From Escherichia coli (GTDB lineage Bacteria; Pseudomonadota; Gammaproteobacteria; Enterobacterales; Enterobacteriaceae): a DNA stretch of 64,000 bases. Location of the stretch: NCBI RefSeq assembly GCF_003991155.1, contig NZ_CP031293.1. One strand, written 5' to 3'. The notes below the pieces were generated by a model. That model worked only from the letters and a program-made list of their open reading frames with translations. It had not been told where the DNA came from and searched no databases. Below, piece by piece: positions 47,430 to 54,049 of this stretch. Numbering within the stretch: position 1 is the stretch's first letter; each line of letters begins with the position of its first letter. The translations under genes and the position numbers were made by a program.

Positions 47430-48914
47430 ATGCGAAAAATAATTACTCATTTCAAAGTTGTTTTAACGTTACTTCTACCAGTAACCGTATCTGCCCAGCA
47501 GATACAGTGGCAATCCTGTATGGCCAGTCAATTCAACCACTGGTTTGGTGAGGAAAAACCGTCTCCTGACTTACTATGTGGTTATTTGTCTGTTCCATTA
47601 AAATATACAGACACAGGCGGAGATGCTTCTTATGAAAAAAAATCACAAGTCAAACTAGCGTTGACAAAATTGCCGGCAAAAAGCAAGCATAAAGGAAGTA
47701 TCCTGATAATAAGTGGTGGTCCCGGGTTACCAGGCATAAATCCTTATATTAACTTTGACTGGCCAGTCACAAATCTTCGTGAGTCATGGGATATTATTGG
47801 ATTTGATCCTCGAGGCGTCGGACAGTCCACTCCGACAATAAACTGCCGGCAATCAGATACAGAGACTCAGGAAAACATAACCGAAAAGCAACAAGTATTA
47901 AATAAAATTAATGCCTGTATCCATAATACCGGAGCCGAAGTCATTCGCCATATCGGCTCTAACGAGGCTGTATACGATATTGATCGTATTAGGCAAGCCT
48001 TGGGGGATAAACAACTGACAGCCGTGGCGTATTCGTATGGAACTCAAATTGCAGCCTTATATGCAGAACGTTTTCCCTACAACGTAAGATCTATCGTTCT
48101 TGATGGAGTCGTCGATATCGATGACCTGGAGGACAACTTCACATGGCAACTCAAACAGGCACAGAGTTATCAGGAAACGTTTGATCGCTTTGCATCCTGG
48201 TGTGCGCGTACAAAAAGTTGCCCGCTTTCTTCAGACAGAGATAAGGCAATAACTCAGTTCCATGAGCTATTATCAAAATTACATCACAAACCTTTATTAG
48301 ACAGTAAGGGAGAAAATATATCTTCAGATGAACTCATATCATTAACAACAGACCTTCTGCTATGGCGTTCATCATGGCCAACCCTTGCAACTGCCATACG
48401 CCAGTTCTCTCAGGGGATTGTCAGTAATGAAATTGAAACTGCGCTCAGTGCTCCGATAGCCTCAGAAGAGTCAAGCGATGCTTCGGGGGTAATCCTCTGT
48501 GTAGATCAGGGGGATGAGCAATTAACACCAGAAGAGCGAAAATCCCGAAAAGACGCTCTTGCGAATGCCTTCCCGGCTATTAACTTTGACAATGGACGTT
48601 CCGATTCACCTGATTTTTGTGAATTATGGCCAATACATAGCGACCTGAACAAAACTCGCCTGAAAAATACTGTTCTGCCCTCTGGTTTACTGTTTGTAGC
48701 ACACAAATACGACCCAACAACGCCCTGGATTAATGCCCGTAAGATGGCAGAGAAATTTTCCAGCCCGTTACTAACAATAAATGGTGATGGGCATACATTA
48801 GCTCTCACCGGAGTTAATTTATGTGTAGATAAAGCAGTTGTACATCACCTGATCACTCCACAAAAAATAGAAAATATATACTGCCCAGGAAATTCTGAAG
48901 CAGAAATACAATAA
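47430..48914 (+). CDS. Putative secreted alpha/beta-hydrolase, S33 / TAP-like peptidase family
   Basis: 494-aa ORF with signal peptide (MRKIITHFKVVLTLLLPVTVSA), nucleophile-elbow-like YSYGT and a TAP-type C-terminal region (KYDPTTPW); occupies the K-12 appY position. Confidence 0.7.
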   Translation: MRKIITHFKVVLTLLLPVTVSAQQIQWQSCMASQFNHWFGEEKPSPDLLCGYLSVPLKYTDTGGDASYEKKSQVKLALTKLPAKSKHKGSILIISGGPGLPGINPYINFDWPVTNLRESWDIIGFDPRGVGQSTPTINCRQSDTETQENITEKQQVLNKINACIHNTGAEVIRHIGSNEAVYDIDRIRQALGDKQLTAVAYSYGTQIAALYAERFPYNVRSIVLDGVVDIDDLEDNFTWQLKQAQSYQETFDRFASWCARTKSCPLSSDRDKAITQFHELLSKLHHKPLLDSKGENISSDELISLTTDLLLWRSSWPTLATAIRQFSQGIVSNEIETALSAPIASEESSDASGVILCVDQGDEQLTPEERKSRKDALANAFPAINFDNGRSDSPDFCELWPIHSDLNKTRLKNTVLPSGLLFVAHKYDPTTPWINARKMAEKFSSPLLTINGDGHTLALTGVNLCVDKAVVHHLITPQKIENIYCPGNSEAEIQ

Positions 48915-48969: not shown

Positions 48970-49177
48970 ATATTCATATTTTTGTTATTCTTGTATGAAA
49001 TCGTCTCATGTACACGGTCCTTTTTTCGCCGAAAACTGATATTACTTTAATCAAAAGTTGACGTGCCAGATTCGAAGTAAATTTATAAAATATCAAATCA
49101 ATATACATTTTGCACCTTCGAGATAGTAATTGCTGTTACTGTAACATGAGTTACAAACAGCTTCATACCCAGAGCTA

Positions 49178-49396
49178 CTGATGTATCAACACGATTCAAC
49201 AATACCCGATATTTATTCCATGCCTCCAGCAACGATCTTTCTTCCTCCGTTGCGATTTCCCAGCATCCTGCAGTGGCGCAATATACTCACTGAATTCCTG
49301 GATGTAGAACTGTGTGGTGACGGTCTTCCAGCCATTCGGCTCCTGCTGTATCGAAGCATACCAGGCTATTTCAATATCGCTATGCTGCGGCAGCAT
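49178..49396 (-). pseudogene. Tail fibre assembly gene remnant (tfaX-like), frameshifted
   Basis: EYIAPLQDA matches the lambda Tfa C-terminal region as recalled; the rest of the Tfa C-terminus ([27 protein letters not shown]) is in another frame. Confidence 0.6.
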
Positions 49397-49452: not shown

Positions 49453-50121
49453 ATGGTGAAATTAATGAAAAAAAACACAGATGATGGGGCTAAAATTTAC
49501 ACACCACTTACCCTAAAGCTTTATGACTGGTGGGTTTTGGGAGTATCAAATCGGCTTGCATGGGGATGTCCTACAAAGGAACACCTTCTTCCACACTTTC
49601 TGGAACATTTAGGTAACAACCATCTGGATATTGGTGTTGGAACTGGGTTTTACCTTACTCACGTACCTGAGAGCAGTCTGATATCTTTAATGGATTTGAA
49701 CGAAGCTAGCCTGAACGCGGCATCTACAAGGGCTGGGGAATCAAAAATTAAACATAAAATTAGCCATGATGTTTTTGAACCTTATCCCGCGGCGTTACAT
49801 GGTCAATTTGATTCCATTTCCATGTTTTACCTTCTTCACTGCCTGCCTGGAAATATATCTACAAAAAGCTGTGTAATACGCAATGCGGCGCAGGCCTTAA
49901 CTGACGATGGAACTCTATACGGAGCCACAATTCTTGGCGATGGAGTTGTGCACAATAGCTTCGGTCAAAAACTGATGCGCATTTACAATCAGAAAGGCAT
50001 CTTTTCAAACACAAAAGATTCCGAAGAAGGCTTAACACATATACTCTCAGAGCATTTCGAGAATGTTAAAACCAAGGTTCAAGGTACTGTAGTAATGTTT
50101 TCCGCTTCAGGGAAAAAATAG
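49453..50121 (+). CDS. Class I SAM-dependent methyltransferase (ybcY-like prophage cargo), apparently intact
   Basis: 222-aa ORF with SAM motif I (LDIGVGTGF); sits between tfa remnants as ybcY does in K-12 DLP12. Confidence 0.75.
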   Translation: MVKLMKKNTDDGAKIYTPLTLKLYDWWVLGVSNRLAWGCPTKEHLLPHFLEHLGNNHLDIGVGTGFYLTHVPESSLISLMDLNEASLNAASTRAGESKIKHKISHDVFEPYPAALHGQFDSISMFYLLHCLPGNISTKSCVIRNAAQALTDDGTLYGATILGDGVVHNSFGQKLMRIYNQKGIFSNTKDSEEGLTHILSEHFENVKTKVQGTVVMFSASGKK

Positions 50122-50175
50122 CATCCAACCGCAGCACGTTCTTGCTTAAGACGTGCTGCGGCATAATCCCAATGA

Positions 50176-50300
50176 TTACTCCCTGACAGGGTTCGTAGGC
50201 CACTCAATATCAGGTGCAGTTGATGTATCAACACGGTTCAGCAACACCCGATACTTCTTCCAGGCTTCCAGCAACGAGGTTTCTTCCTCCGTTGCATATA
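50176..50300 (-). pseudogene. Tail fibre assembly gene 3' remnant (tfaD-like)
   Basis: Translates to [33 protein letters not shown] (Tfa C-terminus) with stops immediately upstream in frame. Confidence 0.6.
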
Positions 50301-50313
50301 CAGCTCACTTTTT

Positions 50314-50607
50314 TCACCCACGATTAACCAACAGCCAGACCAGCAGACACGCCACCACCGGCACAGCAAAATCCATCAGACTTGCTACATCCCACGCGCG
50401 CGGATCAAAACCGCCCCACCACGGCATATTCATTCGCTTGCCATGCCCGAACATTTCAATCCAGCGATATTCTGCCTGGGTGTGTTCACGCGCAATGAAG
50501 AACGTACAACCGGCTATCGCCCCGTAAACCCAGTTTCCGGTAAAAAGACCAATCAGTACCTGCGCAGCCACAGCACAAAGCGCATGAAGAAAAGGTGTTA
50601 TATCCAT
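50314..50607 (-). CDS. Hypothetical small membrane protein (97 aa), prophage tail-fibre region
   Basis: Track ORF with two or three hydrophobic helices, tightly packed after the 234-aa gene; no family recognised. Confidence 0.5.
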   Translation of the reverse strand: MDITPFLHALCAVAAQVLIGLFTGNWVYGAIAGCTFFIAREHTQAEYRWIEMFGHGKRMNMPWWGGFDPRAWDVASLMDFAVPVVACLLVWLLVNRG

Positions 50608-50617
50608 TACTCCTCCT

Positions 50618-51322
50618 TTATCTAATATCGCTTCGGGAAGTTAATAACAACTTTAATTCTGACTCAAGTTCATCAACTCTTTCAGTCAGTTTCTGGATAT
50701 GGTGAATCAGTGGAACAACCAGACGTTCGTACATTACACCTTCGGCAACAAGGCCATTGCTGGAAATAGCTTCAGGAGCATCATCTTCGTTAGCTGGTCG
50801 CCAGTGTACAAACTGAGGAGCAATTTCTCCTACTTCCTCGGCAATCAATCCGTAGAATCCCCAGTCACGCCTGTCATTTTCGCATTGCGACCTGTACCAC
50901 ACAGGGCGCATCCTGAAAATGAGATCGGCGTGCTCTGAATCTATTGTCTCTACTGAATGTTTATAGCGGATAGACGATGTTGACCGCAGCACAGACGAAA
51001 TTGCAGGGTCAGGATTAAGATAAAGGTTTGCCGCCGCTGTAGTCGTGGCCAAATTCCATAAATAAAACGCTTCACGACCTGTCAGTGGATAAAAATCTCC
51101 GCCATAACGACCACTTTCCAGATCGTTCACTTCCACTTTGTTTTTCAGCTTATTATCAACTTCAGTTTTTGTGTATCTGGAGCTGATATCCTGCTTTGCA
51201 CTGGTCATCTCAGTCTGAAGCGTTGATACTTTTCTGCTAATTGATGAAATATCTTCCTTAGCTTTACTGACATCTCCCTTTAGCTTGGTGATATCTCCTG
51301 GAATTACTGTCGATGTAGCCAT
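50618..51322 (-). CDS. Hypothetical fibre-like protein with a C-terminal S74-type intramolecular chaperone-like domain
   Basis: 234-aa ORF; motif SSIRYK then MRPVWYRS and GLIAEEVGEIAPQFV resembles the self-cleaving chaperone domain of phage fibres and spikes. Confidence 0.55.
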   Translation of the reverse strand: MATSTVIPGDITKLKGDVSKAKEDISSISRKVSTLQTEMTSAKQDISSRYTKTEVDNKLKNKVEVNDLESGRYGGDFYPLTGREAFYLWNLATTTAAANLYLNPDPAISSVLRSTSSIRYKHSVETIDSEHADLIFRMRPVWYRSQCENDRRDWGFYGLIAEEVGEIAPQFVHWRPANEDDAPEAISSNGLVAEGVMYERLVVPLIHHIQKLTERVDELESELKLLLTSRSDIR

Positions 51323-51331
51323 TTTTCTGCC

Positions 51332-51613
51332 TCACATCCAGCCACGAAGTTGATGCTCAACAACAACCGCGTATTTATCGAATATTGACGATTTTTTTGC
51401 ATCATTAATGATGCGCACGTTTACAAAATATCCATCTTCCTTAACACATACCGGTTCGCCATCTTCAGTCAGCTCTCCGGTTTCTTTGTACACGTTACCT
51501 ATCACGTCAATAAGAATATCATCCTGCATCGACTCGTCATCATAATAACCAGCACTCTCCATAAAGGTCGAAAAGTCGGCCCTGTCGGCAAATTTGAGTG
51601 TTAAATCTTTCAT
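51332..51613 (-). CDS. Hypothetical small acidic protein (93 aa), coupled to stf
   Basis: Start codon overlaps the stf stop at 51613; Asp/Glu-rich; no family recognised. Confidence 0.5.
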   Translation of the reverse strand: MKDLTLKFADRADFSTFMESAGYYDDESMQDDILIDVIGNVYKETGELTEDGEPVCVKEDGYFVNVRIINDAKKSSIFDKYAVVVEHQLRGWM

Positions 51614-53985
51614 TAGATTGACTCCCCCACCTGAGCATCAGTCAATGCCTTGTGCCATATTCTGAAATTCCTGACATGACCAAATAAATGACGTAACCCG
51701 GCTGTAGTCTGGCCTCCAATACGGATAATTGCGGTGTTCTGAATATAGGACCATGTGGTTTTTGTTTCGCTGGATATACGCCCGTTACTTACTGAGCACG
51801 TAGACTGATCTGACTTTACACGCATCCCCATAACCATTTTTTCAAGCAATGCGTTTTCGTTTACCCGTCTGTTAGCTCCTCCAATATCGCAATAAGGAAA
51901 TCCGTCGTAATCTGTTGAATGACCGAAGCCAAGAATAATAGCCGCTCCGGTTTGATGACCGCCGGTATCAAAAACACGCGGTGCTGCATTTGGCGTTTTA
52001 TACCAGTTCTTATGTACCTCACAAAGAACCGTAAAAGGAAGATTATAAAGGTTATTCTTGATTGGGACTGTCACCATATCGCTTGCGCGGGTCGCTGCCG
52101 TCGTTTCTGATATAATAAAAGATGATGCGCAAGGGCCATTTTCAACCTGAGGGGTGGACAGGAAAATATAATCTCCCGATTCAACGACACCACCTTCTTT
52201 TGGTGCGTATTGTATTGCCGAGGTTATGCAGGACTCGTCAATTGCCTGAATCGTTGCCTCTGCAAAAATCCAGCCCGTAACCTCATCCTTGTTAACTCGA
52301 GCAGTGAGCCTGTCGGCAGCTACACCGGTGATTTCAACCGATAAAGACCGCGTATTAACAATGGCATATCCAAGATTAGATGAAGCGCTGCCATCGAAGG
52401 CTTCAAACCTGATCCTTAACCGGAGTTCCAAATCCGTTTTAAATCTGCACGATGTCGTCACACACTTATTATCGCCTGATACATCGACAGCCCCGGTTAC
52501 TGTAACTGACGCCATGTTAACAGGAGAGGTTTTCCCAATCAGAGAATCGTTACAGACAAATTTTCCATAAGTAAAACCAAAACTATCCGTCCCGGTTTCG
52601 GGCACATCCATATTTACCGACTTGCCCCAACTGGCAGGGGTTTCCGAATTGAGCATGTAGTTCGTTCTCTGACCCTCAATAAGCAGGCCATCACGTTCAA
52701 ATCGTGGCTCGTCAATGGCAGCCTCTGTCAGCACACCAGATTTATTAATATAGGTTGCTTTCGATGCGCGTTTAAACTTTACAACCTTATCGCCAGGCAT
52801 CGTTATTTCATCATCACCAATAACAATCTTTTTATATGATGGCGAAAACCCCGTAATCATATCCAGTGAATCGTTAAACGGTATCCACACATCAGGCAGT
52901 GGCTGTAAGACATATTTATACGGCTCTGCTGCCTGACTTGCATACTCTCTGGCTGCGTCTTCACTTGCTTTTGCAGCGGTCTGGCTTGCAGCGGATGCTT
53001 TCGCCGAGTTCGCCGCTGCAGTCTCGCTTGTCTTTGCATTGGTTTCACTGGTTTTTGCTGCTTTTTGACTGTTGGCTGATGCAGTGGCAGAAGCAGCCGC
53101 CGCACTTGCAGAACCAGCTGCGGCACTCTCGCTTTGGGCTGCTGCATCCTGACTGTTTTTCGCCGCAGTTTCGCTGGCTTTAGCATTCGTTTCGCTGGTC
53201 TTCGCTGCCGTCTGGCTGGACTTTGCGTTGGTTTCGCTCGTCTTCGCTGCTTTCTGACTGTTAGCCGCAGCAGTTGCTGATCCAGCTGCTGAAGTCGCAG
53301 AACCGGCTGCTGCGCTCTCGCTTTCAGCTGCTGCAGCCTGGCTGTTTTTCGCCGCAGTTTCACTGGCTTTAGCATTCGTTTCGCTGGTCTTCGCTGCCGT
53401 CTGGCTTGACTTTGCGTTGGTTTCGCTCGTCTTTGCTGCTGTCTCGCTATTTTTCGCGTTGGTTTCTGATTTTTTGGCTGCTGTCGCGGAATTTGCCGAT
53501 GCAGTCTGTGAGGTCGCTGCCGCCTGTGCGCTGTTAGCTGCATTCGTTTCTGAGGTTTTCGCCGCGTTCTTCGATGATGCCGCTGCAGTTTCGGATTTCT
53601 TTGCCGCCGCTGCGCTCTGAGAGGCGGCTTCGGCGTTGCGTGCCACTTCTTCCACCATTGCCTCAAAACGACGCAATGCCTCCGGCATGACATCATCTTC
53701 CGTCATGGCACCGAGAAAATCATTCAGCGTACCTGGTCTGGAGCCTTCATAGACGGTAATGGTCCCAGCATGTGAAGGCGGAAAACCTTCAACCAGCAGG
53801 GTGACGCTGTACTGGCCATACTCAACATCCATGCTGTAACGTCCGGCTTCATCCGGATTTTCAGAAGCCACCGTGTTCACCAGTACCGTGGTGCTGTTAC
53901 GCTTTGCCTTCAGTTGAATAGTGCAGTTCTGTATTGGTTTTCCCGCACCATCTTTCAGCACACCTGAGATTTTTACTGCTGCCAT
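51613..53985 (-). CDS. stf: Side tail fibre protein Stf (lambda-like N-terminus, repeat region, distinct distal domain)
   Basis: N-terminus MAAVKISGVLKDGAGKPIQNCTIQLKAKRNSTTV matches lambda Stf as recalled; Ala/Ser/Thr-rich AAKTSETNAK repeats in the middle. Confidence 0.85.
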   Translation of the reverse strand: MAAVKISGVLKDGAGKPIQNCTIQLKAKRNSTTVLVNTVASENPDEAGRYSMDVEYGQYSVTLLVEGFPPSHAGTITVYEGSRPGTLNDFLGAMTEDDVMPEALRRFEAMVEEVARNAEAASQSAAAAKKSETAAASSKNAAKTSETNAANSAQAAATSQTASANSATAAKKSETNAKNSETAAKTSETNAKSSQTAAKTSETNAKASETAAKNSQAAAAESESAAAGSATSAAGSATAAANSQKAAKTSETNAKSSQTAAKTSETNAKASETAAKNSQDAAAQSESAAAGSASAAAASATASANSQKAAKTSETNAKTSETAAANSAKASAASQTAAKASEDAAREYASQAAEPYKYVLQPLPDVWIPFNDSLDMITGFSPSYKKIVIGDDEITMPGDKVVKFKRASKATYINKSGVLTEAAIDEPRFERDGLLIEGQRTNYMLNSETPASWGKSVNMDVPETGTDSFGFTYGKFVCNDSLIGKTSPVNMASVTVTGAVDVSGDNKCVTTSCRFKTDLELRLRIRFEAFDGSASSNLGYAIVNTRSLSVEITGVAADRLTARVNKDEVTGWIFAEATIQAIDESCITSAIQYAPKEGGVVESGDYIFLSTPQVENGPCASSFIISETTAATRASDMVTVPIKNNLYNLPFTVLCEVHKNWYKTPNAAPRVFDTGGHQTGAAIILGFGHSTDYDGFPYCDIGGANRRVNENALLEKMVMGMRVKSDQSTCSVSNGRISSETKTTWSYIQNTAIIRIGGQTTAGLRHLFGHVRNFRIWHKALTDAQVGESI

Positions 53986-54049
53986 ATCCACTCCACAAAA
54001 AAGCCCGCCTGAACCGGCGGGCTGTCATAACACTGTGTTACCTGGCTAA

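Follow-up and report, generated by a model that had tools for sequence, protein, structure and literature searches.

The window analysed here is a stretch of 64,000 nucleotides (nt) of an Escherichia coli chromosome (contig NZ_CP031293.1), in which the segment nfrA-ybcH-envY-ompT adjoins an intact lambdoid prophage. Our subject, located at 50314-50607 on the minus strand, closes the tail-fibre operon of that prophage as its last intact member. It is confirmed as a genuine gene, not a chance open reading frame (ORF), it is under purifying selection, and modelling shows its product of 97 amino acids (aa) as a small integral inner-membrane protein with three predicted transmembrane (TM) helices. 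In many unrelated phage types, members of its family close receptor-binding-protein operons and have no promoter of their own. Concerning its function, the reading that we rank first, as a tentative choice that is possible rather than probable, is a receptor-independent block to phage genome entry, encoded in the late operon and acting at the inner membrane.

The gene and its translation signal are placed as follows.

50314..50607, minus strand: coding sequence of the 97-aa protein (PHROG 1443 / 'Ybl63'), identified through its ORF and translation, its PHROG match, its ratio of nonsynonymous to synonymous substitution rates (dN/dS) and its AlphaFold2 model
50612..50617, minus strand: Shine-Dalgarno sequence AGGAGG, read from the sequence, four nt 5' of the ATG of the 97-aa gene

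The initial annotation had described a 97-aa membrane protein at this position, and several layers of evidence bear it out. The ORF comprises 97 codons and a stop codon, with a translation identical to the one quoted there, and it is preceded by a ribosome-binding site. A comparison of 53 distinct E. coli prophage alleles gives averages of 0.026 for dN and 0.175 for dS, hence a dN/dS of about 0.15, which, together with a motif that stays invariant down to 30% identity, indicates that selection acts on the protein and not on the DNA alone. The gene turns up in 1886 of 5426 complete E. coli genomes (median copy number two, maximum seven), and its homologues form 575 clusters at 90% identity and 447 at 50% identity (E<=1e-3). 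Furthermore, its G+C content of 52.7%, as against 41-49% for the neighbouring genes, marks it as compositionally foreign to them.

The AlphaFold2 model, obtained with a 30-sequence alignment, reaches a mean pLDDT (predicted local distance difference test) of 94 and places helices at residues 4-23, 26-53 and 74-96, while hydropathy delineates hydrophobic stretches at about 5-26, 27-40 and 77-94. Two or three helices had initially been proposed; three is the number that stands. In 64 of 65 sequences lysine and arginine are concentrated on the side of the N-terminus and of the long loop (loop 2), with a count of 5.7-6.0 compared with 0.5-0.7 on the opposite side, and this asymmetry, read through the positive-inside rule, predicts an N-in, C-out topology with the Trp-rich loop in the cytoplasm. 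Periplasmic exposure would be restricted to two or three residues and a short tail, the C-terminal tail being 'NRG'.

The Trp-rich loop that had been pointed out in the initial annotation, MPWWGGFDPRAWD, is indeed present and is one of the two best-conserved stretches of the family. Among PHROG 1443 relatives at 30-55% identity H8, R40, E41 and W72 are invariant and G29, Q44, A45, E46 and P83 nearly so, whereas D79 is invariant in close relatives (alignment A1) and mostly Asp in distant ones. The resulting family signature reads H8 ... [GA]-R-E-x-x-Q-A-E-Y-R-W-I ... M-P-W-W-G-G-F-D-x-R-x-W ... D ... P. The polar cluster formed by H8, R40-E41, Q44, E46, W72 and D79 is predicted to lie, together with the Trp-rich loop, at the cytoplasmic face of the membrane; since this loop would be cytoplasmic and not periplasmic, direct masking of a receptor is unlikely. 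Some members (P0143, P0189 and P0250) carry a hydrophilic loop insertion of about 45 aa that duplicates the QAEY amphipathic helix, so the long loop tolerates a soluble domain.

The first reading of the sequence could not place the protein in a family. This holds for the curated collections, as neither the Pfam scan (query and 35 diverse members) nor the NCBIfam and PADLOC profile searches returned a match, but it does not hold for PHROG 1443, a phage family without assigned function that matches at full length (E=6.7e-59, residues 1-96 on profile positions 1-96 of 97) and to which distant relatives at 30-40% identity are likewise assigned. The nearest neighbours in AFDB50 are named 'Ybl63' in UniProt. 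A profile search of the PDB gave a chance match only; the fold search of AFDB50 with the model retrieved unannotated homologues only, and that of BFVD nothing at E<=0.001. Thus no annotated fold, solved or predicted, was matched by the model, and the Pfam, PDB and AFDB50 searches revealed no enzyme family resembling the protein by sequence or fold. The labels DUF2784, DUF2238 and DUF1772 that appear on a few AFDB50 neighbours were not reproduced by Pfam scans. In these searches no characterised family unrelated to phage exclusion was matched.

Relatives in the representative library all stand alone, at about 63-146 aa, and no informative domain fusion was found among them; E. coli 'variants' of 118-146 aa were considered as Tfa fusions and rejected, being frameshift or stop-loss read-throughs. 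The hosts of the family span Gamma-, Beta-, Alpha- and Deltaproteobacteria. All identified hosts are Gram-negative, and a single locus (L136) lies in a Dehalococcoidia metagenome-assembled genome (MAG) that is possibly misbinned. Our literature search found no publication characterising the family, of which what is already known amounts to catalogue entries (PHROG 1443, 'Ybl63', 'hypothetical protein'), with no entry in Pfam.

The tail-fibre-end position claimed at the outset is exact: on the minus strand, the end of the late operon comprises gpJ, a Lom-like gene, the side tail fibre gene (Stf), a 93-aa gene, a 234-aa gene and then the 97-aa gene. Across 80 loci in E. coli lambdoid prophages, Stf is followed, usually by way of the 93-aa gene, by a variable cassette and then by the 97-aa gene, the cassette being a 234-aa fibre gene, a different fibre gene of about 1.1 kb, or nothing. 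Irrespective of the upstream cassette or tailspike, the 97-aa protein is 95-100% identical.

This association extends well beyond lambdoid prophages. In the P22-like phage Gally the homologue sits between the tailspike gene and int, and in the P22-like vB_EcoP-611R6 it follows the tailspike and an OafA O-acetylase gene and precedes int; this tailspike-int slot is the position of gtrABC in P22 and a classical conversion locus (gtrABC or oac). In phage EC.W1-9 it lies after the tailspike, ahead of the lysis cassette. It directly follows gpJ in a Comamonas testosteroni prophage and overlaps the end of an 875-aa tail fibre gene in a P2/HP1-like prophage of Aeromonas salmonicida. Among metagenomic phages, at 32-36% identity, it twice follows a PHROG 5939 tail protein, and in another the preceding fibre has at its end the chaperone domain that is also found in the 234-aa protein of the window. 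The Gally tailspike and the Stf of the window proved to have no receptor-binding domain in common, so that the 97-aa gene is not tied to one fibre type.

A scan of one genome per species yielded 43 loci, 39 of which were analysed by classifying the nearest same-strand upstream ORF; it was run with alignment A1 and not with the more diverse A2, so the most distant relatives are under-sampled. The upstream ORF encodes a tail fibre, tail protein or tailspike in at least 11 of the 39 loci (Escherichia, Comamonas, Pantoea, Silvania, Chelativorans, Sphingobium and Desulfovibrio), and in three further loci it belongs to the 93-aa family (PHROG 18574). As only same-strand ORFs were taken, co-directionality rests mainly on unbiased gene calls, and wherever these exist the homologues are co-directional with the fibre gene and often overlap it. 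In Pigmentiphaga humi (L121:6824-8691) the homologue has on one side a PHROG 2889 protein without assigned function, which gives a partial tail-protein match, and on the other side the avd gene of a diversity-generating retroelement, a region taken in such elements by the receptor-binding gene that they target; it may thus stand inside the retroelement cassette, in the slot of the downstream neighbour of the target gene.

The association has its exceptions. In a large metagenomic phage the homologue is found in an early-looking region away from any annotated fibre gene, and in the jumbo Aeromonas phage AVP1 it follows a terminase-like gene, the next gene giving a marginal N-terminal tail-fibre match. 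Some carriers are large, apparently virulent and probably lytic phages. Moreover, a syntenic stand-alone chromosomal homologue, outside any prophage, occurs in Aeromonas aquatica, A. rivipollensis, A. media and A. taiwanensis (L088, L100, L101, L102 and L107, at about 8001-8309), between a pirin gene and a convergent RIO1/Kdo-kinase-like gene accompanied by two lipid A acyltransferase genes. Homologues adjacent to ligA are present in one Sphingomonas genome (L133) and in one unclassified Pseudomonadota MAG (L135). These lone Aeromonas and sphingomonad copies suggest a function that benefits the host.

With regard to expression, upstream DNA from different contexts has nothing in common beyond the ribosome-binding site, which implies that the mobile unit carries no promoter. 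In the window no promoter-like site was seen just upstream of the gene, the stop codon of the 234-aa gene (50618-50620) standing ten nt ahead of its start; in the window and in ev207 the distance from the preceding stop codon is 10-12 nt. Many E. coli prophages, as well as 611R6, have a terminator (GGGGCCGAGCGCCCC then GTTTTATT) whose end is 21 nt away from the ATG, and no promoter lies within that 21-nt gap. In Gally an AT-rich spacer of 190 nt comes after the terminator, and the one promoter-like site in it is weak and no stronger than chance would give. Late operons antiterminated by Q or gp23, in lambda and P22, read through such terminators, and the P22 annotation shows read-through of a late-operon terminator. 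Given a gene that abuts or overlaps the fibre gene and, where a terminator lies 21 nt ahead of it, leaves no room for a promoter, expression looks like antiterminated late transcription, and late co-expression with the fibres is the simplest reading of the sequence; low-level expression in lysogens may occur where upstream transcription or a local promoter exists.

These data bear unevenly on the initial suggestion that small membrane proteins in this position serve lysogenic conversion or superinfection exclusion. The logic of position gains support, since in phages from four classes of Proteobacteria the family comes after a gene for a fibre, a tailspike or J, the P22-like tailspike-int slot is occupied, and the stand-alone copies suggest host benefit. 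What fits less well is the picture of a moron expressed in the lysogen: of the features of a moron, a deviant G+C content and a downstream stem-loop are seen and an own promoter was not found, the gene abuts or overlaps a fibre gene, it occurs in apparently virulent phages, the Trp-rich loop is predicted to be cytoplasmic, and there is no homology to the exclusion and conversion proteins tested.

According to the entry-block reading, most of the protein would come from the antiterminated late transcript that also yields the fibres, and it would sit inside the inner membrane, where it would stop the genomes of superinfecting phages from entering irrespective of their receptor. It could do so by disturbing the membrane conduit or through a conserved inner-membrane host factor that incoming phages need, and in host lineages that keep a lone copy it would serve for defence. 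We rank this reading first because it best reconciles a membrane location with independence of fibre type, fits temperate and lytic carriers as well as multiple copies per genome, and explains the lone copies retained by bacteria; in addition, phages habitually encode exclusion genes beside entry-related virion genes, typically beside receptor-binding loci (PMC8594841), the gp15 gene of HK97 next to the tape-measure gene being a further instance, and SieA of P22 offers a direct precedent, as this inner-membrane protein, with its three TM helices and a conserved motif on the cytoplasmic side, prevents the delivery of DNA (PMC10883804).

The resemblance to SieA covers the inner-membrane location, the three predicted TM helices, the conserved cytoplasmic-side motif (a prediction in both cases), the encoding within a virion-gene region and the independence of receptor type. 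Nevertheless, SieA has 162-164 aa and its own promoter and is expressed in the lysogen, whereas the 97-aa gene is promoter-less and follows a fibre gene; the SieA motif FxRYPxEAxxFNK is absent, and the hhalign probability is 0.2%. Imm of T4 is likewise a small phage membrane protein; it stops DNA at the inner membrane, and virulent phages are among the carriers in both cases. It differs in having 83 aa and in its gene lying beside the T4 DNA polymerase gene, and neither Imm nor Imm.1 shows homology (hhalign 0.3% and 0.4%). T4 imm is an early gene. The gp15 of HK97, a small membrane protein that is encoded in a lambdoid tail gene cluster and annotated as a moron product, is said, in work of Cumby et al. 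from 2012, to confer exclusion; it has 62 aa, it is encoded just upstream of the tape-measure gene with its own putative terminator after the gene, and it too lacks homology (hhalign 0.5%). In architecture and position, then, the 97-aa protein resembles the class of small inner-membrane accessory proteins of phages that comprises SieA, Imm and gp15, and it fails every homology test with them.

Two further comparisons concern the envelope. GtrA is also a small multi-helix inner-membrane protein, from the tailspike-int locus, conserved irrespective of O-antigen type. Unlike the 97-aa protein it is about 120 aa long with four helices and acts jointly with GtrB and GtrC, and its gene is divergently transcribed from a promoter of its own; no homology was found (hhalign 0.2%), and no gtrB- or gtrC-like neighbours accompany the 97-aa family in any context (window, E. 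coli prophages, Gally, 611R6 and EC.W1-9). The genes of Cor and Llp share with ours the place of an accessory envelope protein gene directly beside a receptor-binding locus (PMC8594841), but their products are outer-membrane lipoproteins directed at a single receptor (FhuA), while the 97-aa protein is predicted to be in the inner membrane. It has no signal peptide or lipobox: its start, MDITPFLHALC, lacks a basic n-region, Leu precedes Cys11, and Cys11 is not conserved.

Several of these observations weigh against an entry block. The literature search found no exclusion phenotype for the PHROG 1443 family; hhalign probabilities stay below 1% for SieA, Imm, Imm.1, gp15 and GtrA, and PADLOC has no match; Cor and Llp are receptor-specific surface lipoproteins, whereas the 97-aa protein is essentially invariant whatever the upstream fibre; and in six phages the homologue adjoins or lies near holin/endolysin genes or putative lysis genes. 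Late-only expression would make a poor exclusion system in lysogens. Finally, the near-invariant polar motif looks more like an active or specific binding site than like a passive plug. A tiny inner-membrane enzyme or staging factor, whose invariant His/Arg/Glu/Asp site at the cytoplasmic face would act on or with fibres and tailspikes, or on a universal membrane component on which these depend, also deserves mention, at a probability that we consider low.

Since lysis genes recur among the neighbours, an accessory of lysis timing (an antiholin, a holin modulator or a membrane stabiliser) has to be weighed as well: made at the end of the late transcript, the protein would tune holin triggering or protect the energised membrane until assembly is done. 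The six phages concerned are varied. In L090 and in Comamonas terrae (L127) the homologue stands just before a holin-family gene (PHROG 126 and PHROG 4237/20, respectively), with starts overlapping or closely spaced; downstream of it come proteins with three and two TM helices and a PHROG 3108 protein in another Comamonas locus (L087), an endolysin in Acidovorax (L116), and a 134-aa three-TM protein with a holin-endolysin-endopeptidase cassette in EC.W1-9; in the Aeromonas phage 62AhydR11PP homologue and PHROG 3108 belong to one operon. Class I holins of the lambda S type share with the 97-aa protein a size of about 100 aa, three TM helices and late expression, and the promoter-less, apparently late transcription of the 97-aa gene would suit a role in lysis. 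They differ, however, in their opposite predicted topology and in a charged cytoplasmic C-terminal tail, typical of holins, in place of which the 97-aa protein has 'NRG' only. No member matches a PHROG holin or lysis family (E<=10), bar one weak Rz-like match; the carrier prophages have separate, complete lysis cassettes, and in lambda-, P22- and P2-like phages these are far off while the 97-aa gene stays with the fibres, as it does in the window, where it belongs to the fibre operon and not to a lysis cassette. A lone Aeromonas or sphingomonad copy, moreover, has no holin to regulate. Taken together, we regard a role in lysis timing as unlikely.

The immediate surroundings of the gene in the window comprise the following features.

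51613..53991, minus strand: 792-aa side tail fibre (Stf) with a prophage tail-fibre N-terminal domain (Pfam PF08400, E=5e-67; PDB 9e7m, E=7e-49)
51332..51613, minus strand: 93-aa acidic soluble protein (PHROG 1361/18574, by PHROG match), a recurrent neighbour of the 97-aa family
50618..51322, minus strand: 234-aa tail-fibre-domain protein with a coiled coil and a C-terminal intramolecular-chaperone domain (PHROG 3299/454, tail fibre)
50176..50295, minus strand: tfa 3' remnant (RefSeq: 'tail fiber assembly protein, incomplete, missing N-terminus')
50110..50161, minus strand: stem-loop (stem 50129-50161) and U-run (RNA fold -29.9 kcal/mol, z = -3.5)

The C-terminal part of Stf corresponds to PHROG 1419/5939 in the E. 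coli relative analysed, and PHROG 5939/1419 tail proteins are also found upstream of distant 97-aa homologues. Between 52857 and 53696 the Stf gene contains long imperfect Ala/Ser/Thr-rich repeats (KTSETNAK.. / SQTAA..), which create long spurious ORFs on both strands, e.g., a 279-aa ORF in another minus-strand frame. The 93-aa protein has no Pfam or PDB match. PHROG 18574 proteins adjoin 97-aa homologues in a metagenomic phage, Pantoea and Comamonas (L091:2076-2393, L109:7484-7999, L114:7432-7998), and those of PHROG 18574/1361 are usually accompanied by tail proteins of the PHROG 5939/1419 type; the 93-aa protein may be a chaperone or accessory of this type of fibre. Residues 110-222 of the 234-aa protein match an L-shaped tail fibre chain (8hqz_d, E=2.7e-6), and the slot between the 93-aa and 97-aa genes (loci L007-L086) is a swappable cassette, in which the alternative fibre gene of about 1.1 kb has a terminator at its end; this exchange suggests branched or exchangeable side fibres.

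Downstream of the 97-aa gene the operon retains the tfa 3' remnant alone. The junction formed by the stop codon of the 97-aa gene and this remnant is identical in all lambdoid copies examined, so a single ancestral recombination seems to have replaced the 5' part of tfa. The block of gene and remnant may in turn supply the downstream homology for the exchange of fibre cassettes. The stem at 50129-50161 is a perfect 11-bp inverted repeat (CCGCAGCACGT ... ACGTGCTGCGG) located between a convergent methyltransferase gene and the fibre operon. It is likely the terminator of the late/fibre transcript, and probably a bidirectional one; a simple terminator scan missed it because the U-run starts 9 nt past the stem. 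The convergent gene (49453-50121, plus strand) encodes an intact class I S-adenosylmethionine-dependent methyltransferase (PHROG 2132, E=8e-157), apparently ybcY of the K-12 DLP12 region.

Past the tfa remnant comes other prophage-derived cargo, followed by ompT, envY, ybcH and nfrA, and this chromosome/prophage segment is 100% identical in several sequenced strains. A second tfa 3' remnant occurs at about 49098-49378, plus a DinI fragment. Between ompT and the prophage end, at 47430-48914 on the plus strand, lies a gene for a 494-aa secreted-looking alpha/beta hydrolase (TAP-like), assigned to PHROG 20134 and to the PADLOC candidate-defence family PDLC01094 'C3a206' (E=7e-56).

This arrangement lends itself to a further explanation, in which the protein is an accessory of receptor-binding proteins, i.e., a membrane-anchored folding, staging or attachment factor for fibres or tailspikes, perhaps acting with the acidic 93-aa protein and replacing the Tfa chaperone lost in this type of Stf. 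Adjacency to the fibre gene and translational coupling are kept down to about 32% identity, the gene recurs with the small protein of PHROG 18574/1361 and with PHROG 5939/1419 tail proteins, the lambdoid copy occupies the former place of the N-terminal part of tfa, and the conserved face, predicted to be cytoplasmic, could contact fibres. The protein, however, remains 95-100% identical whether a 234-aa fibre, another fibre, none or a tailspike stands upstream. P22-type tailspikes, besides, need no folding helper, the gene is missing from most phages that have these fibre types, and it occurs away from annotated fibre genes (in the large metagenomic phage) and as a lone chromosomal gene, the AVP1 neighbour giving its marginal N-terminal match only. 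An accessory of this kind thus seems to us improbable.

A comparably low probability goes to envelope modification. Here a tiny membrane enzyme or regulator would act at the cytoplasmic face on a lipid-linked or membrane substrate, altering a surface polysaccharide or lipid and changing phage adsorption indirectly. The invariant cluster of His, Arg, Glu and Asp at the interface resembles a catalytic or metal site, the P22-like locus of gtrABC/oac is occupied (the 611R6 homologue coming after the OafA O-acetylase), all identified hosts are Gram-negative, and the Aeromonas copy neighbours the two lipid A acyltransferase genes and the RIO1/Kdo-kinase-like gene. Those Aeromonas genes are nevertheless convergent and not co-operonic, and sphingomonads carry the gene though they have no lipid A, for which reasons the idea of a lipopolysaccharide target was down-weighted. 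There is, furthermore, no enzyme-family similarity by sequence or fold, 97 aa without a conserved partner gene would make an unusually small enzyme, and expression appears late, not lysogenic.

Least convincing of the named alternatives, and rather remote in our estimation, are counter-defence against a membrane-bound host abortive-infection effector or another host-takeover role, with which late expression and occurrence in lytic phages are compatible but for which no target can be named and against which, as a purely anti-host role, retention in host chromosomes argues, and conservation chiefly as a recombination linker flanking exchangeable fibre cassettes, as the near-invariant block of gene and tfa remnant downstream of highly mosaic fibre cassettes could suggest and as has been proposed for conserved sequences flanking receptor-binding genes, seen as recombination hot spots (PMC10408124), a role at odds with the protein-level selection shown by the motif invariant to 30% identity and the dN/dS of 0.15. 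The remaining probability belongs to something else.

To the specialist, one more small hypothetical membrane protein encoded at a prophage end is in itself no surprise, and the mechanism proposed here is one that we infer. Yet roughly one complete E. coli genome in three carries the gene, phages of at least four proteobacterial classes have it as well, and it still has no Pfam family and no name other than 'Ybl63'; characterising it would rid prophage annotation of a 'hypothetical protein' that is met with very often. That it is linked to receptor-binding genes in phages of different morphotypes offers a new and useful handle on the problem. If the protein turned out to be a membrane partner of receptor-binding modules, there would be a membrane-associated step in the function of host-recognition proteins, common to sipho-, podo- and myoviruses of Proteobacteria. 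The receptor-gene linkage, the interfacial motif and the lone host copies make it a candidate for a receptor-independent exclusion or defence protein, or else for an unknown late function, and either outcome would matter when phage host range and the resistance conferred by prophages have to be predicted, for instance where E. coli is to be treated with phages.

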